A stretch of 64,000 nucleotides of DNA from sequence record NC_010583.1, one strand, 5' to 3'. Below, piece by piece: positions 6,908 through 59,072 of the stretch; within the stretch, counting starts at the first letter, position 1, and every line of letters begins with the position of its first letter. The position numbers were made by a program, and so were the translations under genes. This DNA comes from Escherichia phage Eps7. The notes under the pieces were generated by a model. The model saw only the letters and a list, made by a program, of their open reading frames with translations, was not told where the DNA came from and made no database searches.

Positions 6908-6915
6908 TAATTACT

Positions 6916-8658: not shown

Positions 8659-9003
8659 ATGGTAATTTATGAGGGCAATCGCTTTATTACTAATTGCCGT
8701 CCGGCATTATTAGCAAACTATTTAAATCAGCTTTCACCAGTTTATAAAGGCGTAGTTAATATCTATGAGGGCAAAGCACATTATAAAATTTCTGCCGTTG
8801 TCGCCCGTGAACTAGCGTTTCAATTTTTAACTTTTGGGTCTTGTGACGTTCAGGTTATGGGGGAAGCGTTAATAGCGGAAAATGAAAATGAATTTATTGA
8901 CATTTTCCGCAAAGTATGTACGGAGCGCCTGATTATGAAAGGCGCGTATATTCAATCAACCGCTGAAAGTATTGAAACAGCGTTTCGAAAGGTGGCGCAA
9001 TGA
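8659..9003 (+). CDS. hypothetical protein
   Basis: 114-aa ORF with GGGAGG RBS. Confidence 0.55.
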   Translation: MVIYEGNRFITNCRPALLANYLNQLSPVYKGVVNIYEGKAHYKISAVVARELAFQFLTFGSCDVQVMGEALIAENENEFIDIFRKVCTERLIMKGAYIQSTAESIETAFRKVAQ

Positions 9004-11232: not shown

Positions 11233-12267
11233 TTATACATCGTGATTGACTTTGAGTATGACTCCCTTCGATGCCATGAAAAGGAATGTTGCTAAGTAAG
11301 ATGACTCGGAGTTTAGCGCAGAATAATCTACACTTCCTCTAGGTCTAGTTTCTTGTTTAGTGTCAAGAATTGTTGATATATCAAACTTAACAAAGTTAGC
11401 AATCTTTCTAGCTTGCTCGGGATCACGTAAGAGTTCATAATGCGCTGCATTTAGAATATTAGTGGATTCAATTACATCATCATTAATTATACTTAGATGA
11501 ACCTGCGCAAGTATCGAGACAATCCCTAGCTTTAACTCAGATACAGAAGAATAAGGTGGTTCTACTTTCTTTGTAAGTCTAGGAAGATGATCATATTTAC
11601 ATTGTTTTTGTGGAATCATCAGAATGTTGGGATAACATTCTAAACATGACTTTGCATTTCCTTCTTTAAAATGTGGGAGTTCTTTATCAGCAAAGACATG
11701 GAATGAATCTGCTGAGAATCCTTTAATAGTAGGGTCAACAGTTTGAATCAGACGACGTAGACTAATGTATGAAGGAGCTAATGTAACTTCTTCTGCATCT
11801 TTATTATACTTGGGCTGTCCACTAGCATTAATATATGCAGGATAAAACTCTGCACAAAATGCTATTGCATGTGCCTCTAACTCATTAAGCTGAGAAACAC
11901 ATTTTCCATTACAAGCTCTAGCTAATTTAATAATCTCTGCTAAATTCTTTTTTTATACTCATATATAATCATCCGGTCTGGGTTTAAGTTCTGTTATTGA
12001 TTTTGCTGAGGGCTCTAACTTAATCCATGTAAATCCTAGCTGTTCTGATAGGTGAGAGATATTTCTAGGTGTTATCTTTATATCTGGAGGTAATTTAAAT
12101 ACTAGGTCTTTAAGTAACTTCATATCATCTGAACCAATGAAGAGAATATACTGCATTTCATCTCTTAGTTCATATTCAGATTCACTCAGGGAGCTAACAC
12201 CAGCAGTAAATTTATTGAGTTGGGCCACTTTGCAGCGACCCACGGTAAACTGAGTAATTATATCCAT
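11233..12267 (-). CDS. hypothetical protein(s); coding continuous 11233-11952 but no canonical start, upstream ORF 11959..12267 ends 6 nt before an A7 run
   Basis: ORFs 11233..11619 and 11959..12267 with an open stop-free frame between them; possible indel at homopolymer 11946-11952. Confidence 0.4.
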
Positions 12268-43842: not shown

Positions 43843-44286
43843 TTAATTAAATTCGCCAGCAACCTGAGCAGCAATGCCACCATCGTAACGACCAGGAAAC
43901 TCTTCCTTAATCGCTTTCATCAGCATACCCTTTGTAATCCCAGGATTCAACTTAACTAATTCTGCAAAGTATTTGCGAATCTCAGAATCAGATAACTGAG
44001 GCGGCAGATACTGTTGTAGCCATTTGTTCAGTATATATTCATACTGAGCAGACTGCAAGCTATAATTATCAAGGTCTTGACCGTGAAGTTTAGCTTTTGT
44101 CTGATTAATGCTTTTCAGTTGAGCTTTTAGATAAGATACAAACTGTTCAGAAGTAATGAAGTCTTTATCAACACGCTGAAGATCTCCGATTATAGTCTGG
44201 TAGCTTTTAGCTACTTCTTTATCAGAACCATCAACCTTAGATTCCTGCAAAGCCCTACGCAAAACATCTAGAATATTCTCTTCCAT
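43843..44286 (-). CDS. GatB/YqeY-domain-like protein
   Basis: 147-aa ORF; recalled resemblance of C-terminal region to YqeY family; TAATG overlap with upstream small ORF. Confidence 0.45.
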   Translation of the reverse strand: MEENILDVLRRALQESKVDGSDKEVAKSYQTIIGDLQRVDKDFITSEQFVSYLKAQLKSINQTKAKLHGQDLDNYSLQSAQYEYILNKWLQQYLPPQLSDSEIRKYFAELVKLNPGITKGMLMKAIKEEFPGRYDGGIAAQVAGEFN

Positions 44287-44456
44287 TATTTAATTCCCAG
44301 TGCTTGGTTAAAAGATTGTTCTGTCATAACTGCCGAGACTTTAGCGAAATCAAACTTCTTAGGGTTTGTAGTAATTTCAGCAACGTTAGTAGTTTTAACT
44401 GTTTTCGTAGTACGGATACCACGAGTATTAACACCAATAATTACAACTGATTTCAT
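44286..44456 (-). CDS. small hypothetical protein (56 aa)
   Basis: ORF below track threshold, 32 nt downstream of promoter. Confidence 0.4.
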   Translation of the reverse strand: MKSVVIIGVNTRGIRTTKTVKTTNVAEITTNPKKFDFAKVSAVMTEQSFNQALGIK

Positions 44457-44487
44457 ATTTCGCTTCCTCTCATTAATTTATGAAAGT

Positions 44488-44516
44488 ATTATACAGAAAT
44501 TTAAGGCTTTAAGCAA
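44488..44516 (-). promoter_or_regulatory. sigma70-type early promoter
   Basis: ATTATA 44488-44493, AAGCAA 44511-44516, 17-bp spacer. Confidence 0.6.
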
Positions 44517-44524
44517 TCGAATTT

Positions 44525-44992
44525 TTAAGTTTTCTTAACCACAGGCTTGTAGAACGTATGGCCTTGAATCTTCGTTGTTTTCTTAAACTTCTTTGTCCAG
44601 TACGGTTTATCTTTACCACTATGGAAGTATAACGCTCCATGTGTTGGATCTTGTGGTAAATCAACGTAGTATATCACTCTAGCTAAATTCTTAGCAACTT
44701 GCCAAGCCTCATCGGTTTTATCAACTTTTGGTCTCTTGGCCACCCAAGAGAACTGGTTAGACTGATATACTACTTTACAGTAAGAATCAGGAAAGTACCA
44801 GAGTTAACACGGTTTTTTAGTAACCTGTGCAACTGCGATCATTCCTTTAGTGCCCTCACCTCGTGCTTCGAAGTAGATATTTTTTGCAATGCAATCAATC
44901 TGCTTTGAGTCGTAGGTCGCATGACTATTGAAGCTATAGGTTAGGGCAGCTATTAAAAGCAAAGCTGCCTTCATTTTATTTACTCCGGCCAA
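44525..44992 (-). CDS. SleB-like cell wall hydrolase with signal peptide, frame interrupted
   Basis: ORFs 44804..44992 (signal peptide, NIYFEARGE) and 44525..44743 (HGALYFHS); intervening frame reads VNSGTFPDSYCKVVYQSNQFSW. Confidence 0.5.
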
Positions 44993-45297
44993 TCGTACTC
45001 AATACGATTAGGGCTTTCTTGATACCCTTCGTCTAAGAGATCATTACGCATGGTCTCTTTAGCTACTGGGTTCGAGGTTACTAGTACCACTTTCTTGGGT
45101 CTCTGACCAAATTCTAGGAGTAAACGAAGAATTTGATAACCTTCCATACCATCTACAGCCAGATCGTTATCCATATAAACGAAATGACCTGTGGTATCGG
45201 TTTTATTCAGAAACTCAATAGCGGCTTCGGGGGTTCGAATGATAATGTCCATTCCATGAAGGTTACGTACATCATCAATCAGAATATGAAAAATCAT
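44980..45297 (-). CDS. receiver (REC/CheY-like) domain protein candidate
   Basis: 105-aa ORF with ILIDD ... YMDNDL ... VVLVTS ... K spacing resembling response-regulator receiver domains. Confidence 0.4.
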   Translation of the reverse strand: MIFHILIDDVRNLHGMDIIIRTPEAAIEFLNKTDTTGHFVYMDNDLAVDGMEGYQILRLLLEFGQRPKKVVLVTSNPVAKETMRNDLLDEGYQESPNRIEYDWPE

Positions 45298-45327
45298 AAT
45301 AGCCTCGTCTCATCAATTTAAAAATAT

Positions 45328-45356
45328 ATTATACAGAAAACTAAACTAATTAGCAA
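45328..45356 (-). promoter_or_regulatory. sigma70-type early promoter
   Basis: ATTATA 45328-45333, TAGCAA 45351-45356, 17-bp spacer. Confidence 0.6.
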
Positions 45357-45736
45357 ATACATTTTTAAATTGAGAGACTAGTAAACCGATAAACAGCCTA
45401 GAGGCGCCACAGGCCATATCTTATGAGCCATGTACCTTTGATCTAGGGTTTGAATCATCAACGAATACTTTGCATCTTTTAGCTTTAGAAGGTTAGAAGT
45501 TTGAGTTCTTTTAACTTTTCAGCTTTCATACTTGAGCGTTGATCTTTGAAGTTGTGTTGGTACTACCAACGACCGTTTTTACAGTTCAGCTTAAGAGGCT
45601 GGTGTAATAAACATAATCTCCAATAGATTATACTTTATAGTATGGTCAGCGGTCTTATTTAACCTCGTATTTCAACCGCTGCTGCGAGGTAAGATGCTTG
45701 GGCTTTCGTCTACCGATTTACTAGTCTTTTAAATTA

Positions 45737-46375
45737 TTACTCTACTTCGATGAAAGTAGAGGCGTTGGACTCAGACAGAACAAAGTCAACGTTAGTTGCA
45801 AAGTCCTGGTATTCTTCGTCGTGTTGCTTGATCAGCTTTTCTAGCTCCAGCGGATCGATCAGGAACGGAGTGTTCTTGAGTTCCAGCAGGTTAAGCTGCA
45901 TCTTAACTTCATCCTCGGAAGTCTTCTTGTCGCGGGTAGCCATGGTATCCTGCAGACGCTCATACTTGGCGTCAAACTGAGCCTTCTGAGTGTTAAACTT
46001 AACAGTAGCAGCATGGAACTGCTTACGCATGTTAGCCAGCAACTGAGCTTTGAGTTCCATAGAACGCTTAGCTTCGATTGCTTCCGCAACAGTCATAGAG
46101 CGAGAACCGATCTCTACAACAGTTTCAGCATTGCTCTTGATCAGCGCAGCTTTCAGCTGATCACGCTGGGACATCATATCCAGCAGAGACTGGAAATCAG
46201 TCTTAATACGAGTAGACAGAGCATCTACTTCGATTGCAGCGCCAACGACAACTTGGTTCTTGTCCTTACCTTCACCAACAGCGATCAAAAGCTGTTGTTC
46301 AGTAGCTTTACGGATTTTAGCTTCCAGAGACTTGATAGTTGCCAGAGCACGAGTTTTAGAGATACGAGTAGTCAT
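45737..46375 (-). CDS. coiled-coil hypothetical protein
   Basis: 212-aa ORF, G+C-richer than neighbours. Confidence 0.55.
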   Translation of the reverse strand: MTTRISKTRALATIKSLEAKIRKATEQQLLIAVGEGKDKNQVVVGAAIEVDALSTRIKTDFQSLLDMMSQRDQLKAALIKSNAETVVEIGSRSMTVAEAIEAKRSMELKAQLLANMRKQFHAATVKFNTQKAQFDAKYERLQDTMATRDKKTSEDEVKMQLNLLELKNTPFLIDPLELEKLIKQHDEEYQDFATNVDFVLSESNASTFIEVE

Positions 46376-46429
46376 TATTTGCTTCCTTATATGAAGTTTG
46401 AGATTTGAATTTGTTTTAAAAACGGTCTA

Positions 46430-46612
46430 TTACAGACCGATTGCCAGCATAGTGCGCAGAACAGTATCAGAACTGTTATCAATATTCGGATTGGCGCGAT
46501 TCAGCACGTTAAAGATTTTCTGGATGCCGGACTGACGCTCAGCCATACGACGCAGACCCAGGTTACGTTTTGCTACTTTACCATTTTTACGGACGTTTTT
46601 AGATACTGGCAT
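46430..46612 (-). CDS. small basic protein
   Basis: 60-aa ORF. Confidence 0.4.
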   Translation of the reverse strand: MPVSKNVRKNGKVAKRNLGLRRMAERQSGIQKIFNVLNRANPNIDNSSDTVLRTMLAIGL

Positions 46613-47385
46613 AATTATTTTCCTTTTGTTGTTCTCTCAAATTTATGAATATATTATACAGAATTTGGAGCTGAAAGCAAATCAAATTTTGATTTTTTTC
46701 GATCATGATGGCTACACAATAACTTTCAACTAAAGCATCGAATGCGGGATCATGTTTCACTGGATAGATTCCATAACGAATGGTATCCATCTTTTCCATT
46801 TTAGCTTTTGCCCAGCTAGCACCTTCGGCTTCTAGATCTTTATAGCTATAACCAGCTTGCATCCACTGATTACGGAAAGATCGAACGTTACCTAAGTTCC
46901 AGAATTTCCACGGAACTATTTCTTCATGGGTTCCGGCATGGAACGTATTTGCAGAGTAGATTGTCATATCAAACTCTGGGCCATTGCCGTAATACAGAGC
47001 ATTATCTCCTAGAGACAATTCCATAATGTTCTGAGCCATAGAGAAGGCAGCATAATTAGAGCCTACGTCATTAGTGCAGTGATGCTTACCATCACGGAAG
47101 GCAATCAGTTTAGGATTACGACCATTTAGAGCCTCCATAATATGGAGCGCAGATGGACTGTTTTTTAGCTTGATCCATCCAGAATGCAATAGTAGAGGCA
47201 GTTACCTTAGCACCCGCATTAAGCTGATCTTGAACGTCTAGAGTAACGAATACCAGATCAGGATCTTTATCAATTCCGTGCATCGCTACAAAAGCGAAAG
47301 AAGGCATTGCAATATGAGTAGTACCGCAATTTCCTGGAGTACCTAGAGATTCAATGTCCAGCATACCAAAGGGCTTGAATTTCAT
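46599..47385 (-). CDS. putative exonuclease-like protein, frame interrupted
   Basis: ORFs 47116..47385 (MLDIESLG acidic motif) and 46599..47189 overlap; 3' end of downstream piece runs into promoter. Confidence 0.4.
46653..46680 (-). promoter_or_regulatory. sigma70-type early promoter
   Basis: ATTATA 46653-46658, AAGCAA 46675-46680, 16-bp spacer. Confidence 0.55.
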
Positions 47386-47415
47386 AATTATGTCCTTTAT
47401 TGTTGTAGAAAACTA

Positions 47416-47628
47416 TTAAAGAGCTGTCTCTTTAATAGACTCCCACTGTTTGGGGTCTTTCAGAGGAAGTTCCTCTTCTTCAAACAGGTCTGTTCCATTT
47501 TCACTAACATCCCAGTTTTCTTCCATGATTTCTTCTAGAAGCTCATGTTTAGAAAGACGAGTGTAGTCTCTAGCAGACTTGTGAGTGCTAGCACGGTTAA
47601 AATCATTCTTTGCAACGAAGTTACGCAT
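47416..47628 (-). CDS. hypothetical protein
   Basis: 70-aa ORF. Confidence 0.45.
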   Translation of the reverse strand: MRNFVAKNDFNRASTHKSARDYTRLSKHELLEEIMEENWDVSENGTDLFEEEELPLKDPKQWESIKETAL

Positions 47629-47669
47629 AGTTTCTCCAAATAAGAGGGGCTTTCGCCCCCTGATTTAAA

Positions 47670-47885
47670 TTACTTGCCCAGCAGTTTAAGGATATTTTCC
47701 TTAATAGTTTGAGCAGATTTTTCACTCTTATTGGTTTCAGCCAGTTTCAGAGCGAGTTCTTCCTGCTGTTTCTGAATATCAGCAGCAGTTTTCTGGTCAG
47801 CTTCAATACGAGCTTGAAGTTCATCAGTAATAGTGGTAAAGGAAGCAACGATTTCAGTAACGGAACGTGGTTTCTTAGAGAACAT
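47670..47885 (-). CDS. coiled-coil small protein
   Basis: 71-aa ORF. Confidence 0.45.
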   Translation of the reverse strand: MFSKKPRSVTEIVASFTTITDELQARIEADQKTAADIQKQQEELALKLAETNKSEKSAQTIKENILKLLGK

Positions 47886-47946
47886 AAAAATATCCTTAAT
47901 TAGTCAGAGAAAGAGTTAGTATATGGGGCTTTCGCCCCATCAATCA

Positions 47947-48462
47947 TTACTTCGCTTTACGCTTACGAGTAGGTTTAGCGGATTTACGATCAGAAGCACC
48001 AGTAAACTTAATACCGATACCGTAGCACAGAGCGCGAACGTTGTCACGGCTATACTCTACACCGAAAATATTCGGTTTAACGGAGCCAAACTGTCCACGG
48101 GATTCACGCATTACGTCAGCCATTGGCTTACGCTTCTGATTGACTGCTTTTTCGTAGTCTTTCAGAGCCATACCGTTGCGGGCGAACATCTCAGCACCGC
48201 CGTTAAAGCTCAGAGTTACCGGTACAGACTTATGACCTTCACCCTTGATGAACACAACCTGCTTAGCAGTTGCGCGAGTAGAGTTCTTGGCCTTCGGCTT
48301 CTGGCGAACCGGAGCCGCAGACTTCAGGGCAGTCTGAGCCTGAGCATCAGTAGGATGCTTACGCAGATGACGTTCCAGACGAGCCTTACGATTGGCTTCG
48401 GTCTGAGCGAAAGTTTTAACTGCCGGAGCTGCCTGAGTTTTTGCGTTTTTCTGCTTAGCCAT
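47947..48462 (-). CDS. basic (Lys/Ala-rich) protein, possible nucleic-acid binding
   Basis: 171-aa ORF. Confidence 0.55.
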   Translation of the reverse strand: MAKQKNAKTQAAPAVKTFAQTEANRKARLERHLRKHPTDAQAQTALKSAAPVRQKPKAKNSTRATAKQVVFIKGEGHKSVPVTLSFNGGAEMFARNGMALKDYEKAVNQKRKPMADVMRESRGQFGSVKPNIFGVEYSRDNVRALCYGIGIKFTGASDRKSAKPTRKRKAK

Positions 48463-48500
48463 TATTTGTTTTCCTTTTTGTTGATCAATTTATGAGATAT

Positions 48501-48529
48501 ATTATACGAAATTTTGAAGCGTTTAGCAA
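48501..48529 (-). promoter_or_regulatory. sigma70-type early promoter
   Basis: ATTATA 48501-48506, TAGCAA 48524-48529, 17-bp spacer. Confidence 0.6.
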
Positions 48530-48545
48530 ATGAATTTTTTAAAAA

Positions 48546-48824
48546 TTATCTGCCGATCATCTTAGCTTGTTCCTCACTGGAAACGTACTGATAACCACCC
48601 TTATTGTATGCAGGAGCAGTACACAGTTTCTTACGCTCAATTTCTTCTTGAGCCTTGCGTTCCCTTTCGGCTAACTCTTCATCTAGGTAAATTAGACGTT
48701 GCTCCGGAGGTGGTGGAAGCCTAGTTTCTGGCTCACCAATATTTGCCTTTCTGATCTGACGCGGAGATTGTGCGCGTTTTCTCAAAGGTTTAAATCCTAA
48801 TGAATTTGAGTTGTAAATTCGCAT
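48546..48824 (-). CDS. hypothetical protein
   Basis: 92-aa ORF. Confidence 0.5.
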   Translation of the reverse strand: MRIYNSNSLGFKPLRKRAQSPRQIRKANIGEPETRLPPPPEQRLIYLDEELAERERKAQEEIERKKLCTAPAYNKGGYQYVSSEEQAKMIGR

Positions 48825-48851
48825 AAAGCCCTCCTCACTTTCAATACGAAT

Positions 48852-48880
48852 ATTATACTAAATTAGAGGGCTTTAAGCAA
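48852..48880 (-). promoter_or_regulatory. sigma70-type early promoter
   Basis: ATTATA 48852-48857, AAGCAA 48875-48880, 17-bp spacer. Confidence 0.6.
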
Positions 48881-48900
48881 GTGAATTTTTAATTTATTTA

Positions 48901-49389
48901 TTACATCTCAGCAAGTTCTTGCTCAGTAATTACAGTATTGCATAGAGCATCAACTTCTTCATTACCACGAATACCTGAGTGACCTTTAACCTTAACAAAG
49001 GTTGGATTGGTATCATGGAAGTTAATATACTGTTGAGTTAGTTTAAATGCTTCTTGCCAGAGTTCTAGATTAAGAGGAGTTTCACCATCTCCCTTCTTCC
49101 AGCCTTTCTTCTGCCAAGACCACATCCAGCTTTCCATACCATTTTTGCAGTAAGCAGAATCAGTGTAGATAATTACTGGACGATTATCTTTCTTAGTAGA
49201 CCAACGAAGAACTTCTACAATTGCAGTAAGTTCCATTTCGTTATTAGTAGTTTTAGGGCTGAAGCCAGATTTAGAGCCAATACGATCATCATTATCATTA
49301 TAGACAACGAATCCCCACGCACCTAAACCAGGATTGCCTTTACATGCACCATCTGTATATATGTGGAAAACCGACATTATTTGCTCCAA
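48901..49389 (-). CDS. rnhA: ribonuclease HI
   Basis: 162-aa ORF with YTDGAC.GNPG, TNN.MEL, DS.Y and HSG..GNE.VD motifs. Confidence 0.8.
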   Translation of the reverse strand: MEQIMSVFHIYTDGACKGNPGLGAWGFVVYNDNDDRIGSKSGFSPKTTNNEMELTAIVEVLRWSTKKDNRPVIIYTDSAYCKNGMESWMWSWQKKGWKKGDGETPLNLELWQEAFKLTQQYINFHDTNPTFVKVKGHSGIRGNEEVDALCNTVITEQELAEM

Positions 49390-49646
49390 TCAATTTCAAG
49401 CCAAAAACCTTCACGCTGTTCATACTTAGCTTCTACAACATAACCTAGTTTGCTAAGTTTTTGCATGACGCTATTTCTAGCGTTTTCTGAGTATTCAGTT
49501 AATCCCTGGATGTGACAGTTAAATTCTTTATCTTTAATAGCTTTGTCAATCTCTACGGCAATAAGTGATTCTAGGTCAATTACTTCCTTTTTAATGCTAG
49601 CAATAGTATTTTGTTTTGCTTCTAAAGCAGATAAAAGAATAGACAT
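49377..49646 (-). CDS. hypothetical protein
   Basis: 89-aa ORF. Confidence 0.5.
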   Translation of the reverse strand: MSILLSALEAKQNTIASIKKEVIDLESLIAVEIDKAIKDKEFNCHIQGLTEYSENARNSVMQKLSKLGYVVEAKYEQREGFWLEIDWSK

Positions 49647-49648
49647 AT

Positions 49649-50227
49649 TTATTCTCCAATTACTAAAACATCATGTTGGGAAGATACACCACACATATAA
49701 TCTGCACAATGCGTAAAAGCCAGATCAATGATTTCAAATATATCATCTACATCTAAATCTGTGGCTCGACAATCCGCAATAGCTAAACCTGTACGAATAC
49801 TGGAAAGTACATCTTCTCCTCCACAGCCTACACCGGCATATTCAACTTCTAGAATAGAAGCATTAGATTGGAAAATAAAGATTCTTCCTTTGTAGAGCAT
49901 AATAAATTGTCCCAGATTAGGTTCAGCATATTTTTCATTTTTCTTTTCGCCAAAATCTTTCTGGTTAAACATATCACGTAATTTAGGTACTATTTCCGTA
50001 TATAAATATTTATCATCGGAAATATCTGCTAAACGTGGTGGTACAGTAAAGCTATGCTCTAGTAATTGTCCCATGTAGAAGGAACTAGTGTATCCGAAGT
50101 ACAAATCATCAGAGATTTTGAATACTTTCGGATTTTTAACCAGCAGTTTCGTATAGCCATTAGAACCCATACGATCACCAGCTAAGTATACTTTATCTTT
50201 ATATTTAAATGCTACTATGGCTGTCAT
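49649..50227 (-). CDS. Ntn-hydrolase (HslV/proteasome-like) family protein candidate
   Basis: 192-aa ORF starting MTAIVAFKYKDKVYLAGDRMGSNG, resembling HslV N-terminus. Confidence 0.45.
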   Translation of the reverse strand: MTAIVAFKYKDKVYLAGDRMGSNGYTKLLVKNPKVFKISDDLYFGYTSSFYMGQLLEHSFTVPPRLADISDDKYLYTEIVPKLRDMFNQKDFGEKKNEKYAEPNLGQFIMLYKGRIFIFQSNASILEVEYAGVGCGGEDVLSSIRTGLAIADCRATDLDVDDIFEIIDLAFTHCADYMCGVSSQHDVLVIGE

Positions 50228-50257
50228 TATTAAATCCTTCTGTCAAATTAGAAGTAT

Positions 50258-50286
50258 ATTATATTTGAATTTCACTCAGTAAGCAA
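50258..50286 (-). promoter_or_regulatory. sigma70-type early promoter
   Basis: ATTATA 50258-50263, AAGCAA 50281-50286, 17-bp spacer. Confidence 0.6.
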
Positions 50287-50325
50287 ATGAAATTTAAATA
50301 TAATAGCCCCGAAGGGCTATTTGAA

Positions 50326-50679
50326 TTAGATTATAATCAAGATTATTAGGGCGTATGTCAGATAATGCAGTAACTGATCAAATCCTAAAGCTATCCAAAA
50401 CTTAGCATCGCTTATAGCATATTTACAGCGTTGTGCTTTCCAATAATCTATAATAAAGTGTAGAATTAATTCCATAATAGCTAAAGCTATAGACATTCCT
50501 GGTGATGTGAATAGGATTAGAATTGCAAATGTTAATCCAGCATGTACTAGCGAATGGGTTAATAATGGAAGTTTCCACCCTATTTTATGCGTCTTTCTTA
50601 GCATATATGGTGTTTGGAGTGGATAATCGGCCATAAAATGTTTTAGAAAGAATATGACAAATAATAGTATAATTAACAT
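50326..50679 (-). CDS. multi-pass membrane protein
   Basis: 117-aa hydrophobic ORF. Confidence 0.45.
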   Translation of the reverse strand: MLIILLFVIFFLKHFMADYPLQTPYMLRKTHKIGWKLPLLTHSLVHAGLTFAILILFTSPGMSIALAIMELILHFIIDYWKAQRCKYAISDAKFWIALGFDQLLHYLTYALIILIII

Positions 50680-50682
50680 ATG

Positions 50683-51537
50683 TTACACCGTAAATGGATA
50701 TGCAATAGCAGGATGGTGTTCATAGCCACGAACAGTAAAATCATCCTTACTTACCCACGTTAATACATCATCCAAAGTTCTAATATTTGGATTGATTTCT
50801 AAAGTAGGAGGTGCAAAAGGTTCACGATCGAATTGCTTGTGCTCCATCAGAACATTATACTGATCTTCATAGATATGAAGATTAATAATCTTTTGACGAG
50901 CAATACCTGGCTTAAGACCTGTAATCTGTGCCATAATAGCTAGAAGTGCATAGCATTGCACCATATTAAATACTTGGCCCAGCAAGAAATCATTAGACCT
51001 CTGGAAAGAGTTTAGGTATAGTGTATCACCTAAAATAGAGAATTGATGGGTATGCATACACGGACGTAGGCATCCTTTACGAAATTCCCCACGGGTTCCA
51101 AAAGTTAAAATTTCTCCACGATCGTCAATCCCTCTTTTCAAATTATGATAGACTTTGGCTAACTGATCAAATACCATACCATCAGAATTAGTCCAATGAC
51201 GTCCTTGAACACCATAGACTCGTCCCATATCATCCTCGCCTTTACGGAATGGATTACCTAGCCAGGCAATATTTTCATTTGCATTAGCATTCCATGTATT
51301 AACACCAATAGCGCGGAATTGTGCTGCTGAGTCGTACCCACGGAGATATCCGATCATTTCCATTATTGCTTGTTTAGCAAATGCTTTACGAGTAGTTACT
51401 AGCGGCAGTTCTCCTGCTCCTACGTTAAAGGTAAAGTCTGCATCAATAATGGTTAGGCAACGAACCCCTGTTCTAGGATTCGTTACCCATACACCCTCTT
51501 CAAGAATACGTTTTCCAGTTTCAATATATTGCTTCAT
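50683..51537 (-). CDS. thyA: thymidylate synthase
   Basis: 284-aa ORF with catalytic-Cys region [10 protein letters not shown]; adjacent to DHFR and RNR genes. Confidence 0.8.
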
Positions 51538-52062
51538 TTAAATATCACCAATTCTTGTAAGAATGAAAGCGTTTTATCTGCATTCTGTCCTGCCACATAG
51601 TCCATTCTAGTTGCCATTGAATTATAAGTAATATGATGATGCAGATGTACATCAGCAGATAATGGTGTGGCTGAAGTAATAGTAGAGATATACGCCATAT
51701 CTAGATGATTTTTTGACATACATTTCAAGAAGCAGAGTTGCTCCCCCTAATACTACAGTTACCTCTTCCTTGAGAAAATCAGGCAGACGGTATCCAATGT
51801 TGCTTATGCGTGTAGCTGATCTTATAGAGTTCGGTAGTGGTCTATTTGCATAAATAAATAGGTCAGAATCTCCTAGTATTCTTTTTTGCAGAGTCTCAGG
51901 GAATGCTAACCAAGTTCCTGCTCCTACAATAATATTGTCAGGTGCCAGAGAATCCAATGTAGCATAGAAGATATCTAGTTCTTCTTTGAAAGAACCCCAG
52001 GGGAGCTTACCATTGAGGCCGAACTCCCCATTCGGCCCAGTTGCATAGATTGCTGCTATCAT
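51534..52062 (-). CDS. dihydrofolate reductase, frame interrupted near 51700
   Basis: N-terminal MIAAI...GKLPW DHFR motif; two overlapping frames 51652..52062 and 51534..51728. Confidence 0.6.
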
Positions 52063-53207
52063 TAGAACATATCCTCAAATTCGTTGCCAAGATCTTTCAG
52101 AGTATCAGCAGATGTTTCTGTTACTTGACCTACACGATACGCTGCGCCAATCTGAATCTCTTGCGGAGCAGGTTGTAAAGATGTAGTATCCAACCAGTTC
52201 ATAATCCACGGAATAGGGTTCTTAGTAATTACAGGTAAGTGGCTTGGCCATTCTACACCAATGTGCATAAATGCGTTACGTCCTACAAAGTAAAGGTATT
52301 CTTCAAGCAGTTCTGCGTTCAAACCAATCAGACTGCGGCCTTTAAAGATAAAGTGGCCCCATTCAATCTCAGTTTTCAGAGTTTTTAGGAGTTGTGTTGG
52401 TGCTTTAGCTAATGCTTCATCTACCAGATCTTTATCAAATTGCTGGAACATAATCTGGATGATAGCTTTAGACATTTGAGTATGTAGAGCTTCATCTTTA
52501 GCGATTAATTGCAGGTTCTTAGCAATACCTTGCAGAATATCGTTCTCTGCTAGAGCAAAGGTACATGCAAAGGATGCGTAGAACTGCATTGCTTCCAGAC
52601 CGTAGATTGCAAAGTAAGCATCTAACAGCTTAGCCTGAGTTTCACGTTTAACTTCAGGGAACTCAGTTTCTGGATAAGTATTATCACCACGATGATCACG
52701 TACTGCAAGGAAATACTGACCTAACAGATACAATTCATCAAACAGTTCAACAGAATCTGCGATACGTGCAAATGCTTCTTGGTTTTTAGTTACAGAATCA
52801 ATAAATTCTGCTGGATCAGTCAGAACGTTACGAATAATATTACTATACGCACGGCTGTGCAGATCTTCGAAGTAGCTCCACTGCTTGAGCATACCCTCCA
52901 ATTCAGGACGGCTTACAAGCGGCATAATAGCTGCTTCAGGAGCACGGCTAATGAAAGAATCTGTTTGGGTCTGCCATGCTAAGTTCAGGAGAGTAATTTC
53001 CTGAATATCACGCGGAAGGTTTGGCCATTGTTTCTTATCGGCTTCCAGACTGATTTCAGTTTCAGTCCAAAATTGAGAACGTTGCAGAAGTGCTAGACGC
53101 TCAAGTTCAGGATGTGCTACACGAACGTAATCTGCGATACCAAGAGAATCGCCCAGGAAAAGGTCAGCGTTAGTATGATCCCAATTCAGGTTTAGTAAAG
53201 TAGTCAT
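52062..53207 (-). CDS. nrdB: ribonucleotide reductase small subunit
   Basis: 381-aa ORF with ferritin-like DEALH region; sits between DHFR and nrdA. Confidence 0.75.
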   Translation of the reverse strand: MTTLLNLNWDHTNADLFLGDSLGIADYVRVAHPELERLALLQRSQFWTETEISLEADKKQWPNLPRDIQEITLLNLAWQTQTDSFISRAPEAAIMPLVSRPELEGMLKQWSYFEDLHSRAYSNIIRNVLTDPAEFIDSVTKNQEAFARIADSVELFDELYLLGQYFLAVRDHRGDNTYPETEFPEVKRETQAKLLDAYFAIYGLEAMQFYASFACTFALAENDILQGIAKNLQLIAKDEALHTQMSKAIIQIMFQQFDKDLVDEALAKAPTQLLKTLKTEIEWGHFIFKGRSLIGLNAELLEEYLYFVGRNAFMHIGVEWPSHLPVITKNPIPWIMNWLDTTSLQPAPQEIQIGAAYRVGQVTETSADTLKDLGNEFEDMF

Positions 53208-53238
53208 TGATTTTCCTCTTTCTCACTATTTCAGGAAT

Positions 53239-53267
53239 ATTATAGCAAATCTGGTAGCGATTAGCAA
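53239..53267 (-). promoter_or_regulatory. sigma70-type early promoter upstream of nrdB
   Basis: ATTATA 53239-53244, TAGCAA 53262-53267, 17-bp spacer. Confidence 0.6.
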
Positions 53268-53273
53268 GTAAAA

Positions 53274-53756
53274 TTATAAACTATCAAGCTCCAATAGTTT
53301 AGCATCGCGCCATTCTATAGCATCCTCTAATTCTTTAAATGTTTTAGTATGTTTTACACCTTTCCTAGCTATTTGGACTTGATAAGATCCACTTGCTTTT
53401 TGGTGTATATTTTTAATACCTAACTTATTGTCCTTATGTGCTCCAACGTTCTTTCCATTACTAAATCTGTTAGAGGCTAGTAAATTAATTGCTCTATTAT
53501 CATGACGTATTCTATTATCATGATCTACTTCTTTTGGGATGTACCCATGCGTAATATAGAATGCTAGGATATGTGCGTAGTATTTTGTACCTCTTACCTG
53601 CATTACTATGTATCCTGAGCATTTTTCCAAAGAGCCTGCCTCTTTGCCTGCAAACTTAGTATTAAATGATTTATCTTCTCTAGGTTTGTGGGTAAAGATT
53701 CCGGTTTCTGGATTATAGTCAAATAACTCAGCTATTTCTTTGTATTTTTCTTCCAT
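53274..53756 (-). CDS. HNH homing endonuclease
   Basis: 160-aa ORF with HNH motif EVDHDNRIRHDNRAINL; located between nrdA and nrdB. Confidence 0.7.
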   Translation of the reverse strand: MEEKYKEIAELFDYNPETGIFTHKPREDKSFNTKFAGKEAGSLEKCSGYIVMQVRGTKYYAHILAFYITHGYIPKEVDHDNRIRHDNRAINLLASNRFSNGKNVGAHKDNKLGIKNIHQKASGSYQVQIARKGVKHTKTFKELEDAIEWRDAKLLELDSL

Positions 53757-53811
53757 AATCTAAAATTACAGCCATTATAGGCCTAATAAAGGGGCTTTCG
53801 CCCCTTATTTA

Positions 53812-56204
53812 TTATAATTGACAACCACCAGATGCGCATCCAGCAGCAGCTTCCTCTCCTGCACCTCCACCATTTTCAGTGTTGAAGTTTGCATAATAAA
53901 AGGTTTTCCAACCGTACTTAACAGCAGTCATAAAGTCACGAACTACTACTGGGCCGGGAATGATTTCATTCTCGAACTTGGTGTAGTCATAGTACATATT
54001 CGTACTGATAGACTGGCTGAAGAATTTCTGCATGGTTGCTACCCATTTGATCCACTCGATACGATCTACATCATAAGCCAGTTTATAGCTCATTAATGTA
54101 TCCCAATCAGTTGCACCTGGAGCAATTGCAATTACTTTATTAACTGCACTACCCTTGATAGATACGATCTTACGGGGCGGTTCGATAGAGTTAGTAACAC
54201 CTAGCAGTACAGAGGAACTTTCACCTGGCATCTGAGCAGTCAGAACAGAGTTGCGCATACCATATTTCAGAATATCTGCACGCAGAGATTCCCAATCCAT
54301 TTCTAGACCTACAGTTACCAGTTCATCAACAGTTTTCTTGTACGTGTCGATTACCAGAGTTCCTTGCGAAGGCTTAGTACGATTAAACCAGTCACATGCA
54401 CCTTGTTCTTTAGCCAGACGTACAGAGGCTTTATGTAGGAAGTAGGACAGCTTTTCAGCTTCACGGTGAATCCAGTTACGTGCTTCAACACCTTCGTAAG
54501 CCAAACCTTCTGCTGCCATTGCACCTGCTGCGTTCATCAGACCAATACCAACGTTACGACGTTTCTTAGCCGTGTACTTCCATAGTTGGGAATGGGTAAT
54601 CCTGAATCTCGATGATTGTATCAACGAATTTCAGAAGGATGTAGCAAGTTTTCTCCCATTCAGCCAGAGATTCCATGCGGCCTAGTACAACACCACCTAA
54701 GTTACACAGAGATACTTCACCAATATCTTCTGGACGCATATCGTCTAACTGATCTTGGGTTTTATACAGTTCCGTAACGTGATGGAATGGACGGGTGGCT
54801 GAGTAATTCAACACAAAAGGGTTGGTCATACGAATCGGGTCAAGGAAGTTACCATGACGGTTAGATTCACCAATGTGATGAGCATACATACGCCCTGTTT
54901 CCATACGGATACGTAACCAAGTATCTAGGATTTCTTTTGCAGAGATTCTAGGAGCTGCTGGAATTGTTTTTCCTTCGTGGTCGATCTTTGTAAGAGAAGC
55001 CACACGTTTCTCCGCTGCCACGTAGATTTCTTCAAACTTAGCCTCATCTTCACCATAAAACGCTTCATGAACTTCTGGTGCGTAGAAGTAGGACATTAGC
55101 GTAATATCTTCGTTTTTCAGGTAACGTTTTAACAGAAGGTTGTTAAAGCTCAGAGAATAATCCATCTTATCGATTTTATTCTCGTCTGTAGCACGTTGCT
55201 GCTTAACCTGCATCAACTGAATGATTTCAGGATCGAAGTATGGATAAGACACAGTAGCAGAACCGCCACGGGTTTGCTGAGTGTTAGCTTTTACTGATCG
55301 GTCAATGTGTCGATAATATGGCAGTTTTCCGGAATGCGGGAATGCCCCATTTCGCACCGGATCAGCAATTGATCGGCTTTCAAGATGATACCCGATTCCC
55401 GCTCTGGCTGCGACCATTTTGAAGACGATGTGCTCGGCTGTGTCGATTGAATCCAGCGTGTCAGTGGAATCCACGAGACAGCAACTAGCAAATCCACGGT
55501 CACTAGAGCGCAGGCCAACCAGTGGCGGCGTAGGAACGTTGATTTTGTGGAGCGACATTGCATTGTAGAGGTCGATTGCATCTAGGATTGTCCAGTTAGG
55601 TTGAGATAACATCGCCATTGCCATACCCATGTAGGCAAACTGCGGGGTTTCATAAATTTCACCAGTTGCAATATTACGACGAGAATACTTGTCGAAGAAC
55701 TGTTTCAGTCCACCACTGGTGAATAAACGATCGCGATCATGATCAATAACTTGGTTCAGAGCGTCAAACTGATCATCGCTAATCCATGCACTCATGTCTT
55801 CCCAGCGCCAACACGAACCATATGATCGTGGAAGAAACGCAGAGAAGGGGTTCAAAGGAATCATATAGGCGTTTACGCATCTGCGCAAGACGTAATTCCT
55901 TTGCTACAGTATCATATGCTGGGTTGTCTTTGATAAGACCTTCAGCGGCTTTAATTAACACATCTTGGAGGGTATCGGAATCTACAACACCTTTTGGTAG
56001 ATTTTTCTGGGCAGACATAACGACGGCAGACCAACTTACGTCAGTTGCTTTACATGCCCATGCAGCCCAATCATTGAGTTTTTCAGGAGCAAAGTCCTGA
56101 ACAGTACCGTCACGTTTAATTACTTTTTCAATACTATGGCTCATTGGGGTTTCCTTTTTGTAGTTATCAGGATTTAGGAAATATTCTACTTTGTTTTGGG
56201 TCAT
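53812..56204 (-). CDS. nrdA: ribonucleotide reductase large subunit, frame interrupted twice
   Basis: three consecutive ORFs (55779..56204 with ATP-cone VIKRDGT, 54566..55888, 53812..54624 ending in Cys-rich tail); breaks near 55800-55880 and 54570-54620. Confidence 0.75.
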
Positions 56205-56267
56205 TATGCAAGTACAATTTTACAGATAAAAAGAGCCCGGATATTTTCATACCCAGGCTCGTCTGTC

Positions 56268-56510
56268 TTACCATTTAAGTTTATCGGTTATATCAATTAG
56301 CTTCTGTTGTATTTCTCGGTTGAAGAGAATATCTACAGAAGTACTTAGTTCATTATAGTTGAAAGGCCGATTTGGATTAGAGGCTACAATTTTCCACGCT
56401 AGGGTAGTCTTAGGACTTTCTTCCCCTTCCTTACGTGTAATCATGTTAGCAGCACTCAGTGAAGTACGGTGGATCTTAGTTTTGCGGTGCAGATGTACGA
56501 CGTTTCCCAT
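56268..56510 (-). CDS. hypothetical protein
   Basis: 80-aa ORF. Confidence 0.45.
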   Translation of the reverse strand: MGNVVHLHRKTKIHRTSLSAANMITRKEGEESPKTTLAWKIVASNPNRPFNYNELSTSVDILFNREIQQKLIDITDKLKW

Positions 56511-56511
56511 A

Positions 56512-56845
56512 TTACACCTTCCCCATATCCTTAAAGATATCGTAGAATGCTTTAGACTCCGGTGAGCGAACGTTGTCGATCAGTTCGATCATAGAGAAAG
56601 GAGAGTTTTCGTACTTCTCATAGACTTCCATAAGAAGTGCTAGACCTGAATCACCCTTGATGTCTTTCTGAGCTATATCCCCACAGATAATTAAACGACA
56701 ATCTTGTCCTACACGAGTCAGGAGACAGATCATTGCTTCAACGGAGATATTCTGAGCTTCATCGACAATTACATAGGAGTTGTTGAATGTTGCCACGCTT
56801 TCTTGAACCATTGCGGTTCTCTCTTTTTTGACGTGCTTTTCCCAT
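56512..56845 (-). CDS. PhoH-like P-loop ATPase fragment (Walker B only)
   Basis: VIVDEAQN and CGDIAQKD motifs; probable start MGKARQKRE upstream with frame shift at an A6 run. Confidence 0.45.
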
Positions 56846-56918
56846 AAATAACACTCCTATAGTGTACTTCGCTAACAGAGGATCAACAAAAAGATCTTGT
56901 TTATCAACTTACAAATAT

Positions 56919-56947
56919 ATTATACCAATATATGCGGGAGAAAGCAA
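56919..56947 (-). promoter_or_regulatory. sigma70-type early promoter
   Basis: ATTATA 56919-56924, AAGCAA 56942-56947, 17-bp spacer. Confidence 0.55.
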
Positions 56948-57138
56948 CTACAATTTTAAATAAGCCTATGATATTGCATTTAAATAAAAAATTTGCTTGC
57001 TTTTATTGGGAGATGTATGGTACTAGATAATCATTTTATATCGCGTACACGGGCGCGTGATTATACTATTTTTAATAGAGGTTGGCAAATAAAATTTTTT
57101 GACCCAGATCAATTTACAGAATGTTATAGTAAAATATT

Positions 57139-57168
57139 GTTGACATCCGCCTTCGAATGAGTTATAAT
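57139..57168 (+). promoter_or_regulatory. consensus sigma70 promoter (TTGACA-17-TATAAT) upstream of nrdD
   Basis: TTGACA 57139-57144, TATAAT 57163-57168; GGAGG RBS before ATG 57198. Confidence 0.65.
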
Positions 57169-57197
57169 AGTAGTCTTAGTTAGAGAAGGAGGGTATA

Positions 57198-59072
57198 ATG
57201 AATCGCAATGAAGAACTAAAATATAAAGGAATGCAGTCCTTAATTCGAAACTGCAAAGAAATTATCGAAGGTTCAGCAGATGAAGAGCTGCTGTTTAATA
57301 ATGCCAATAAACCCTCAGAACGTTTCCCTACACAAAGGGATATGCTTGCAGGGGAATTGAGTAAATATCTGATTCTGGAAGAAATGCCAATACAGATTCG
57401 AAATGCTCACATGATTGGTGATATTCACTTCCATGATGCTGATTACGCTGCGTTAGGTATGACTAACTGTTGCCTGGTTGCTTTGGAAGATATGTTGAAG
57501 AATGGTATGAAGGTTGGTAATGCTGAAATCAGTACACCAAACTCTATTACTACTGCGGCTGCTATTACAGCTCAGATTATCACTCAAGTTAGCTCCCATC
57601 AGTATGGTGGTACTTCTGTAGACCGATTAGATGAAGTATTGGCTCCTTATGTTCGTAAGTCTTACGATAAGAATCATGCGTTTGCAAAGCGTTGGACTAA
57701 GGATGAAGCCAAAGCATCTGTAATGGCTACGGAAATGACTGAGAAAGAAGTGTACGATGCCTGTCAAGGTCTAGAATATGAAATCAATACGATGTTCAAC
57801 TCTAATGGTCAGAGTCCATTTATTACCTTTGGGTTTGGTCTAGGAACTTCTTGGGAAGCACGTCTTGTACAGAAAGCAATCCTAGAAGTGCGTATGGATG
57901 GTTTGGGTATCAATAAACGTACTGCTATCTTCCCTAAACTGGTATTTGTTCTGCGAGATGGCGTAAACATGAAGCCTGGAGATGTCAACTACGATATCAA
58001 GAAGTTGGCTATGAAGTGTACTGCCGAACGTATGTATCCTGACTATATCAGCTATGATAAGGTTGTAGAAGTTACGGGAGACTACAAAGTCTCTATGGGC
58101 TGTCGTTCATTCCTGGCTGCTGCGGAAGATGGTGAAACTTCTGGTCGTAACAACTTAGGCGTTGTTTCCGTAAACCTTCCTCGAATCGCTATCGAAGCGG
58201 AAGGAAATATTGATCTATTCTTCGATCTGCTTGAGCTGCGTGTGGATACCGCGTTAAAAGCATTGGAGTGGAGAGTTGATCGCTTAAAATACATTCAAGC
58301 TAACGCTGCGCCCATCCTCTATATGTCAGGAGCCTTTGGATTACGTCTGGGGCCAGATGAATATGTATTTGATCATTTCTACAAGCGTGCTTCTGTATCC
58401 CTAGGATATATTGGCTGCCACGAAATGTTGCAGCTCATGTTTGGTAAAGATGTTGATACAATGTCTGAGTCTTGTATCAAGTTCGTTCAACGTGTGTTAC
58501 AATACATGCGTGATCGTGCTGATCAGAAGAAGGAAGAGACTCAATTAGGGTATAGTCTGTATGCTACACCATCTGAATCTCTATGTGATCGCTTCTGTCG
58601 TCTAGATCGTGAGTATTTCCCAGAGCATGAAGATATTCTGGCTAAAGGATATTACACTAACTCTCATCACCTTGATGTGGAGCGTAAGGTTGCTCCAAAT
58701 GTGAAGTTTGATTATGAGTCTAACTTTACTCCTATTGCTTCTGGTGGGTGCATTTCCTATGTGGAATTACCCGATATGAAACGATTCCCAGATGCGCTGG
58801 AATGGGTTATTAACTATGCTGCAAGTAAGGTTCATTACTTCGGTATTAATACTCCAGTAGACTCCTGTGGGGAATGTGGGTTCTTGGGTGAGACTATAGC
58901 TTCTGAGGATGGTTTCAAATGCCCTATTTGTGGCAACCATGACCCTGAGACTCTTGAGGTAACTCGTCGAGTTTGTGGATATCTTGGAAATCCAGGTGCT
59001 CGTCCGTTTAACCCAGGCAAACAGCATGAGGTAATGGGTCGAGTGAAACATCAGGACATTCGCGCTAAATAA
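57198..59072 (+). CDS. nrdD: anaerobic ribonucleoside-triphosphate reductase
   Basis: 624-aa ORF ending with glycine-radical motif RVCGYLG and CPICG zinc-ribbon. Confidence 0.8.
   Translation: MNRNEELKYKGMQSLIRNCKEIIEGSADEELLFNNANKPSERFPTQRDMLAGELSKYLILEEMPIQIRNAHMIGDIHFHDADYAALGMTNCCLVALEDMLKNGMKVGNAEISTPNSITTAAAITAQIITQVSSHQYGGTSVDRLDEVLAPYVRKSYDKNHAFAKRWTKDEAKASVMATEMTEKEVYDACQGLEYEINTMFNSNGQSPFITFGFGLGTSWEARLVQKAILEVRMDGLGINKRTAIFPKLVFVLRDGVNMKPGDVNYDIKKLAMKCTAERMYPDYISYDKVVEVTGDYKVSMGCRSFLAAAEDGETSGRNNLGVVSVNLPRIAIEAEGNIDLFFDLLELRVDTALKALEWRVDRLKYIQANAAPILYMSGAFGLRLGPDEYVFDHFYKRASVSLGYIGCHEMLQLMFGKDVDTMSESCIKFVQRVLQYMRDRADQKKEETQLGYSLYATPSESLCDRFCRLDREYFPEHEDILAKGYYTNSHHLDVERKVAPNVKFDYESNFTPIASGGCISYVELPDMKRFPDALEWVINYAASKVHYFGINTPVDSCGECGFLGETIASEDGFKCPICGNHDPETLEVTRRVCGYLGNPGARPFNPGKQHEVMGRVKHQDIRAK

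Follow-up and report, generated by a model that had tools for sequence, protein, structure and literature searches.

Identical G/C-rich hairpins behind three early genes of Escherichia phage Eps7: probable leaky terminators or stabilizers at the borders of optional genes

The 64,000-nucleotide (nt) stretch of the Escherichia phage Eps7 genome analyzed here (NC_010583.1), called the window below, carries the same short hairpin, GGGGC-GAAA-GCCCC, behind three genes. Sites 1 and 2 flank p71, an open reading frame (ORF) of 71 amino acids (aa), and site 3 follows nrdA and precedes a gene for a predicted HNH homing endonuclease. We consider it probable (about 0.6) that these are leaky terminator or stabilizer hairpins placed after stop codons, which would owe their identity to repeat-mediated gene gain and loss and to the import of the HNH gene. 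The 8 kb surrounding the sites have 98% identity to Epseptimavirus phages (for example, Salmonella phages PHZ191 and oselot and the chee130_1 group), and positions 47380 to 48560 are 100% identical to Salmonella phage BD13; by these identities, the window covers early genes of a T5-like phage (Demerecviridae, Markadamsvirinae, Epseptimavirus).

Three copies of a stable hairpin behind stop codons

The exact 14-mer GGGGCTTTCGCCCC was found on the plus strand at 47646 to 47659 (site 1), 47925 to 47938 (site 2), and 53791 to 53804 (site 3), and the ORFs adjoining the three copies are on the minus strand throughout. None of 100 dinucleotide-preserving shuffles contained a match (expectation, 0), and the three copies are the sole tetraloop hairpins with an all-G/C 5-bp stem in the window. 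On the minus (mRNA) strand, the 14-mer reads GGGGC(GAAA)GCCCC, with a folding energy of -10.0 kcal/mol; the plus-strand version, with a UUUC loop, has -9.1 kcal/mol. Minimum-energy folds of 56- to 66-nt contexts contain the hairpin at all three sites, with one or two flanking pairs added at each, and the resulting stems (5 to 7 bp; -10 to -12.7 kcal/mol) are located 7 to 10 nt past the stop codons of minus-strand genes. The preliminary description of this DNA, which reported a 14-mer at three sites between minus-strand genes and its folding on the transcribed strand into a 5-bp G/C stem with a GAAA tetraloop, is thus borne out, and the hairpins are both nonrandom and intercistronic. The flanks of the three copies are unrelated to one another.

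At site 1, the order on the message is the UAA of p71, 10 nt, the stem, UCUUAUUU, the GGAG Shine-Dalgarno sequence, and the AUG of p70 (a 70-aa ORF); counted from the extended stem (...GCCCC-U), the sequence is CUUAUUU and then the GGAG of p70. At site 2, the UAA of p171 (a 171-aa ORF) is followed by 8 nt, the stem, and AUACUAAC, which has no U-tract, and the AUG of p71 lies 41 nt past the 14-mer. At site 3, the UAA of nrdA is followed by 7 nt, the stem, and UAUUAGGCC, with UAUUAGG directly 3' of the stem and the AUG of the HNH gene 34 nt past the 14-mer.

A 56-nt fold at site 1 (47625 to 47680, minus strand; -19.4 kcal/mol, z = -3.0) includes a lower helix, UUUAAAU paired with AUUUGGA, in which UUUAAAU is just past the p71 stop codon and AUUUGGA overlaps the p70 Shine-Dalgarno sequence. 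As modeled, this extended fold may couple translation of p70 to termination of p71.

Transcription must pass the hairpins

The gene order on the mRNA strand is nrdA, hairpin 3, the HNH gene, a promoter, nrdB, frd, thyA, and, further on, the RNase H gene, followed by a second promoter (48529 to 48501), p171, hairpin 2, p71, hairpin 1, p70, and metallopeptidase genes. Upstream of the p171-p71-p70 unit, no promoter-like site other than this second promoter is seen. No sigma-70-like site was found in a promoter scan of the minus strand from 48461 to 46729, and the curated T5 record has no promoter annotated between P-H207 and the end of T5.087. Since no promoter follows hairpin 1 or 2, p71, p70, and the following genes need transcription through both hairpins, which must therefore be leaky, if they terminate at all. 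A hidden promoter after each hairpin was considered and rejected because the scan was negative and the TATAAT at site 3 has no -35 element; this TATAAT is not conserved, being TATCAT or TATAAC in the related loci L130 and L150.

In the 8 nt past the stem, the U content is 6/8 but interrupted at site 1 (UCUUAUUU), 5/8 at site 3 (UUUAUUAG), and 3/8 at site 2 (UAUACUAA). A simple terminator scan lists sites 1 and 3 and not site 2, with 14 sites overall compared with 9.6 expected, which is no enrichment. Because site 2 has no U-tract, it is more likely a stabilizer or pause site than a terminator. Both homologous sites are marked "putative transcriptional terminator" in the HASG4 record, and the VAH1, BB1, and AKM_ECS records have terminator features inside the matched region; in the curated T5 record, the phage's own hairpin copy is unannotated. 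The preliminary description had suggested a shared RNA processing, stability, or attenuation element. The positions fit attenuating terminators or 3'-end stabilizers, in agreement with the putative terminators of related records, and to this extent the suggestion stands; a shared GNRA-specific element does not, in view of the variable loops, the count in phage BD13, and the other hairpins found at the site 3 position (see below). On this basis, the hairpins are most likely leaky intrinsic terminators, barriers to 3' exonucleases, or both, within early operons.

Several points weigh against this assignment. The d'Aubenton-Carafa scores, which are approximate and to be taken as a rough guide, were -3 to -15 at site 1, -17 to -34 at site 2, and +11 to -16 at site 3, compared with +17 for the resident T5 nrdA (UUCG) terminator and +36 for trpA t; they are thus below the terminator threshold at sites 1 and 2 and borderline at site 3. 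As scored, termination may be negligible, at site 2 especially. A literature search for transcript 3' ends, termination, or half-lives at these sites in T5-like phages found none. The stem is invariant, so that no covariation separates RNA constraint from DNA constraint, and loop inversions among related sequences (see below) show that the element also behaves as a DNA palindrome. Finally, the annotations of Klebsiella phage Roth37 and Providencia phage PR1 have no intergenic gap after the p171 homologue, which implies that the element is dispensable.

Related phages keep the stem and vary the loop

A protein-anchored scan of IMG/VR gave 27 T5-like loci, which were read with the mRNA sense on top and to which the window was added for the site counts. 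The ten stem bases were invariant in all 48 homologous site instances, while the site 2 intergenic region of Tequintavirus loci is only 62 to 73% identical to that of the window. The loops had seven forms: GAAA (34 instances), GAGA (2), GUAA (1), AGAA (3), UUCU (5), UUUC (2), and UUUA (1). Site 2 was the most variable (n = 20; GAAA 9, UUCU 5, AGAA 3, GAGA 2, UUUA 1), compared with site 1 (n = 20; GAAA 18, GUAA 1, UUUC 1) and with the merged site of loci without p71 (n = 8; GAAA 7, UUUC 1). With 37/48 loops of the GNRA type, this type appears from the alignments to be preferred but not required. An invariant stem amid diverged site 2 surroundings and seven loop forms argues that it is the hairpin that is constrained and not the motif sequence.

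The loops UUUC and GAAA are exact inverses of each other, as are UUCU and AGAA; since the stem is a perfect palindrome, the reversed loops amount to loop inversions, which we read as the signature of hairpin-templated events in DNA. Loop orientations differ among close relatives (L128, L143, L134, L136, L138, L139, L144, L146, and L147) at positions ~8525 to 8540 and 8806 to 8820, the homologues of window positions 47925 to 47938 and 47646 to 47659, respectively. At a perfect inverted repeat, template switching or the processing of cruciforms would be expected to yield such apparent inversions.

Phage BD13 (complete genome, 121.8 kb) has GGGGC-N(3-6)-GCCCC at no place other than the two sites flanking p71. 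The genome-wide motif count proposed in the preliminary description therefore does not reveal a dispersed element: there are three copies in the window and only two local ones in a complete genome, and a genome-wide regulatory motif was rejected. Repetitive extragenic palindromes, bacterial interspersed mosaic elements, and dispersed repeats resembling miniature inverted-repeat transposable elements were also rejected, as only two or three copies exist and their flanks are unrelated. The T5 nick site was dismissed as well, because its consensus in the T5 record is Pu-pGCGC and the hairpin has no GCGC. Membership in a curated RNA family was likewise discarded: an Rfam scan of 44000 to 58000 by E value gave only a spurious plant microRNA match (E = 0.13), which lies at another place in this stretch.

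p71 is an optional gene between direct repeats

Sites 1 and 2 form 14-bp direct repeats around p71, and p71 is missing from 8 of the 27 related loci, T5 included. These have a single hairpin with the junction inside the 14-mer, the left flank (uaauagauaaaua) matching the left side of site 2 and the right flank (ucuuauuuggagaaacuaug) matching the right side of site 1. The clearest case is L130, which lacks p71 and clusters tightly in the left-flank tree with L132, which has it: the merged intergenic region of L130 equals the site 2 left flank of L132, one 14-mer, and the site 1 right flank, as fits a single deletion between the two 14-mers. Loci without p71 are scattered among p71 carriers in neighbor-joining trees of both flanks, and this scatter indicates that the event, or recombination at this point, was repeated. 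In these alignments, the 14-bp palindromic hairpin is demonstrably the junction of a recurrent p71 presence/absence polymorphism.

A third arrangement (p171, hairpin, p71, p86, hairpin, p70) is seen in L134, MET_P1_137_112, and SE24, where p86, an extra 86-aa ORFan (phrog_28965), lies between the p71 stop codon and hairpin 1 and abuts the latter. The p86 insertion was located in some Epseptimavirus and Tequintavirus genomes (L134, 8797 to 9064; L155, 488 to 748; L156, 1255 to 1515). An apparent 770-bp insertion in Sds2-type records was an artifact of joined BLAST pieces.

Between the window and Tequintavirus, nucleotide identity is 91 to 94% for p71, 77 to 78% for p171, and 63 to 68% for p70, and the site 1 intergenic region is 93 to 100% identical except in L128 (84%). 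The synonymous divergence (dS) is 0.25 to 0.49 for p71, a noisy estimate from only 71 codons, compared with 1.0 to 1.2 for p171 and 0.5 to 0.7 for nrdB. This suggests that the p71 cassette has a more recent shared ancestry than its neighbors.

Hairpin 3 probably arrived with an HNH endonuclease cassette

The predicted HNH protein matches PF13392 (HNH_3; E = 4.7e-9) and phrog_99 (E = 1.2e-49). GGGGC-GAAA-GCCCC is found after nrdA only together with the same HNH allele (97 to 100% identity), that is, in the window, L130, and L150. Besides the window, 2 of the 27 IMG/VR loci and ~46 to 55 of ~500 T5-like records carry the allele, always in the nrdA-nrdB gap. HNH-free alleles of this gap are 112 nt long and consist, between nrdA and nrdB, of GGAGAUC-UUCG-GGUCUCC-UUUUUCUUUG and a TTGCTA-17-TATAAT promoter. 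Compared with these, the cassette comprises ~530 bp, from the hairpin onward, in place of ~35 bp that include the resident UUCG terminator. A related HNH gene (75 to 78%) in the same place has a different hairpin, AGAGGGUUA-AUU-AUAACCCUCU-UAUUUUU, and other HNH types sit past the nrdB promoter with the UUCG terminator kept. Three unrelated hairpins thus fill the position behind nrdA in different relatives, and this conserved position with interchangeable sequence points to a need for a hairpin there, not for this motif. Among the sequence comparisons, these swaps appear to be the best evidence that a hairpin per se is needed.

The nrdA-nrdB gap (53239 to 53830, compared with L124, L126, L127, L132, and L133) has received at least four different HNH insertions at two points, before and after the nrdB promoter, which parallels the mobE site of T-even phages. 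Insertions of ~0.9 to 1.0 kb relative to the window were also seen inside nrdA in L137 (~534 to 1451 and ~1908 to 2924) and L148 (~1441 to 2357), corresponding roughly to window positions 54810 to 55275; they may be introns, inteins, or further endonuclease insertions.

The same stem in other viruses and other hairpins of the window

The exact 14-mer occurs in at least 120 IMG/VR contigs; among the matches listed, one contig is T5-like (L078), one is a distant relative (L015), and the rest are seemingly unrelated. Among the 123 occurrences listed, at least five T residues in the 8 nt past the hairpin were seen 39 times for the GAAA sense and 18 times for the other sense, and textbook terminator-like cases, such as GGGGCGAAAGCCCCUUUUUUU, are frequent. 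The 14-mer directly follows nrdB in L015, a distant T5-like contig. In L074 (IMG/VR 3300017735_000250), an unrelated marine contig with 30% G+C, copies at 11902 to 11915 and 12176 to 12189, 274 bp apart, bracket a small ORF in the same hairpin-ORF-hairpin design, and their flanks are similar (ttcttg...cttttNgtta). From these matches, GGGGC-GAAA-GCCCC is a near-optimal short terminator stem that unrelated phages appear to reuse commonly, and this common reuse makes convergence a realistic source for site 3.

Other hairpins of the window also recur or adjoin insertions. In the pre-early (terminal-repeat) region, TAGCGGGGA-ATAT-TCCCCGCTA (3632 to 3653) lies after a 138-aa ORF (3662 to 4078, minus strand) and TAGCGGGGA-TTAT-TCCCCGCT (6915 to 6935) lies after a 333-aa ORF (5906 to 6907, plus strand), so that the same 8-bp stem is present at two intercistronic sites of divergent transcription units. 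At 50302 to 50321, a UUCG hairpin (AAUAGCCC-UUCG-GGGCUAUU) precedes AT-rich sequence and a -35-like box, TTGCTT; other T5-like intergenic regions combine a UUCG stem-loop with a TTGCTA promoter. In the window, ORF117 (117 aa; 50326 to 50679) is inserted between the thyA stop codon and this hairpin, with junctions at a repeated TAA 4 nt from the stem, and in loci without ORF117 (L125, L127, L131, and L132) the hairpin directly follows thyA. Over 16.5 kb, five or six of ~30 indel junctions lie within 10 nt of a hairpin. Whole-gene indels must end intergenically, so that ~4 such junctions are expected by our own rough estimate; we claim no general enrichment.

Mechanism and alternative explanations

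Under the preferred reading, each hairpin would act as a leaky intrinsic terminator and/or as a barrier to 3'-to-5' exonucleases, favoring the upstream message (p171, p71, or nrdA) over the downstream one (p71, p70, or HNH) and still allowing read-through. Hairpin 3 would throttle the HNH homing endonuclease, the gene of which has no promoter of its own, and nrdB would be resupplied by its own downstream promoter. Recombination or replication slippage between sites 1 and 2 would remove p71, with a single hybrid hairpin remaining as in T5, and p71 would be gained by the reverse event; site 3 would have been imported within the HNH cassette that took the place of the UUCG terminator resident behind nrdA. 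Because a direct-repeat pair around an optional gene, import with the HNH cassette, and generic use of such hairpins account for it, the threefold identity is, as these comparisons read, no sign of a specific trans-acting recognition motif.

A possible, though unlikely, alternative is that the hairpins are primarily DNA-level recombination signals, that is, cassette boundaries like those of the promoter-early stem-loops (PeSLs) of T4-type phages or like attC sites, forming hairpins or cruciforms during replication, with any RNA effect being secondary. The p71 junction exactly within the 14-mer, the polyphyly of loci without p71, and the exact loop inversions, which imply hairpin-templated DNA events, would all be expected of such signals, as would the way in which p86 abuts hairpin 1, the HNH cassette abuts hairpin 3, and ORF117 ends 4 nt from the UUCG hairpin. 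The low dS of p71 relative to p171 is compatible with lateral cassette exchange, although p71 is short and the estimate is noisy, and the twofold 14-mer around a small ORF in the marine contig L074 points the same way. GGGG...CCCC PeSLs mediate such shuffling in T4-type phages, with crossovers in the loop (PMC2839356). However, there are only two or three copies per genome and no genome-wide system, no dedicated recombinase is evident, the association of junctions with hairpins over 16.5 kb is not clearly above the intergenic expectation by our own estimate, and any 14-bp repeat, whatever role it has, would allow slippage or recombination.

The remaining alternatives have less in their favor. 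It is improbable that the GAAA (GNRA) loop is a specific RNA recognition element that is bound by a phage or host protein or docked in a receptor for processing or translational control, such as coupling of p71 and p70: GAAA is the commonest loop and nearly fixed at site 1, where the 56-nt fold pairs into the p70 Shine-Dalgarno sequence, but non-GNRA and inverted loops occur at homologous sites of otherwise intact loci, relatives have unrelated hairpins at the site 3 position, the flanks of the three copies are unrelated, the motif is absent elsewhere in the complete BD13 genome, and no Rfam family was matched between 44000 and 58000. Efficient rho-independent terminators that end monocistronic transcripts are very improbable. 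Such terminators would explain the G/C-rich stems after stop codons, the listing of sites 1 and 3 by the simple scan (itself at 14 sites versus 9.6 expected), and the terminator annotation of related records, but not the lack of promoters past hairpins 1 and 2, the p70 Shine-Dalgarno sequence starting 8 nt after hairpin 1, the unconserved TATAAT without a -35 element past hairpin 3, or U-tracts that are short or absent, with approximate scores low relative to the UUCG and trpA t terminators. To coincidental convergence of all three copies, with no shared history, on an optimal short hairpin we give the least credence. Many unrelated viral contigs have the 14-mer, often with a T-run after it, and the unrelated flanks fit independent origins, possibly that of site 3 relative to sites 1 and 2; against this, the hybrid single-hairpin alleles show that sites 1 and 2 interact by recombination, and site 3 occurs strictly together with a single HNH allele.

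Neighboring features

The features around the three sites are listed in Table 1. In addition, an AU-rich 11-bp hairpin, CUAUUAAAGAG-ACAG-CUCUUUAAUAG, with UUUUCU after it, lies across the end of the 70-aa ORF (47413 to 47438, minus strand) and represents a further terminator-like site in the p171-p71-p70 unit. The p71 protein is coiled-coil-like and is labeled "tail length tape-measure protein" in many GenBank records (among them oselot, BD13, and SE24); in our searches, it matched only phrog_2380 and no Pfam family, and the label looks like a propagated misannotation.

Table 1. Hairpins, genes, and promoters around the three sites in the window
Feature	Position	Strand	Context
Hairpin site 1, G-GGGGC-GAAA-GCCCC-U (mRNA strand)	47645..47660	-	Between 71-aa ORF and 70-aa ORF
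Hairpin site 2, AU-GGGGC-GAAA-GCCCC-AU	47923..47940	-	Between 171-aa DUF7022 ORF and 71-aa ORF
Hairpin site 3, AA-GGGGC-GAAA-GCCCC-UU	53789..53806	-	Between nrdA and HNH endonuclease gene
p70, 70-aa ORF, T5.088 homologue, without own promoter	47416..47628	-	Immediately downstream of hairpin 1
p71, 71-aa ORFan, phrog_2380 (unknown function)	47670..47885	-	Optional cassette between hairpins 1 and 2
p171, 171-aa DUF7022 gene, T5.089 homologue, first gene of transcription unit	47947..48462	-	Upstream of hairpin 2
Sigma-70-type early promoter TTGCTA-17-TATAAT	48501..48529	-	At position of T5 promoter P-H207
nrdB promoter TTGCTA-17-TATAAT	53239..53267	-	Retained downstream of HNH cassette
HNH homing-endonuclease gene (predicted), free-standing, 160 aa, PF13392	53274..53756	-	Between nrdA and nrdB promoter
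nrdA, 3' part	53812..54624	-	Stop codon 53812-53814; transcript ends at or reads through hairpin 3

Significance

In an incomplete literature search, we found no paper on the p71 indel with its hairpin borders, on loop inversions, or on the linkage of a hairpin to an HNH gene in T5-like phages. The hairpins themselves are of an already known kind and are annotated as terminators in related records, and their behavior as cassette boundaries adds modestly to a known idea, that of regulatory stem-loops as recombination linkers, which would now cover not only T4-type phages but also an unrelated family whose phages serve in therapy and biocontrol. As routine punctuation of phage gene expression, the hairpins matter mainly for correct annotation. 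In the early operons of T5-like phages, they would indicate where attenuation takes place within the operon, and one of them (site 3), by analogy with T4 mobE, probably limits the expression of a selfish HNH endonuclease. The p171-p71-p70 locus offers a simple place to measure short-repeat-mediated cassette loss.

Comparison with known systems

The closest analogues appear to be intrinsic terminators and intercistronic stabilizer hairpins, on the one hand, and the PeSL cassettes of T4-type phages, on the other. Stem-loop-protected 3' ends are known from the malEFG and puf operons, and C(UUCG)G and GNRA tetraloop hairpins were reportedly described by Tuerk and coworkers in 1988 in T4 intergenic regions. 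The Eps7 hairpins share with terminators and stabilizers a short G/C stem and an extra-stable tetraloop on the transcribed strand right after a stop codon and share with intrinsic terminators a U-rich, though interrupted, tail at sites 1 and 3 and the putative terminator label in related GenBank records. In contrast to classical terminators, site 2 has no U-tract and those of sites 1 and 3 are short as well as interrupted, the approximate scores are lower, and read-through must be substantial because the downstream genes have no promoter.

PeSLs (Arbiol et al. 2010, PMC2839356; Comeau et al. 2014, PMC4122927) are GGGG...CCCC stem-loops that flank ORFans; in one pair of sister phages, an ORFan with two copies is replaced by one chimeric copy, and the RB49 crossover was located in the loop (PMC2839356). 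Similarly, GGGGC/GCCCC stems flank a 71-aa ORFan between small early ORFs here, and the two hairpins around p71 are replaced by one chimeric copy in 8 of the 27 loci, including T5. However, PeSLs belong to T4-like phages, whereas the family here is Demerecviridae; the repeat is only the 14-bp hairpin, whereas PeSLs have a ~100-bp conserved module with a sigma-70-like early promoter, and no promoter accompanies sites 1 to 3; and there are two copies in complete BD13 and three in the window, whereas PeSLs reach ~50 copies in hyperplastic regions. By analogy, hairpins 1 and 2 would work like PeSLs at one locus, but the missing promoter half and the low copy number place them outside the PeSL family. 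A bolder and, in our view, doubtful idea is that T5-like phages (Demerecviridae) possess a hairpin-only counterpart of PeSLs, in which short G/C hairpins that are perfect palindromes double as leaky terminators and as hot spots of recombination or template switching, so that small ORFan cassettes (p71, p86, ORF117, and HNH) are inserted, excised, loop inverted, and exchanged between genera. If this were true, the hairpin would guarantee transcriptional insulation of whatever lands beside it.

For site 3, the parallel is T4 mobE, a free-standing HNH gene between nrdA and nrdB that is cotranscribed with nrdA (Wilson and Edgell 2009, PMC2790892). Its weak terminator, with a short U-tract and 30 to 50% termination, is thought to downregulate the endonuclease; for nrdB, a separate promoter exists downstream of mobE (PMC2790892). 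The Eps7 HNH gene likewise lies in the nrdA-nrdB gap without its own promoter, has the nrdB promoter downstream and a short-U-tract hairpin between nrdA and the bulk of its reading frame, and shows a sporadic distribution among relatives with discrete cassette boundaries. The hairpin is upstream of the HNH start codon, whereas that of mobE is inside the 5' coding region, and, unlike T-even phages lacking mobE, which have no terminator, HNH-lacking T5-like alleles have a UUCG terminator that the cassette replaced. Judged by its sequence and setting, the Eps7 gene represents a mobE-like, free-standing, predicted homing-endonuclease cassette.

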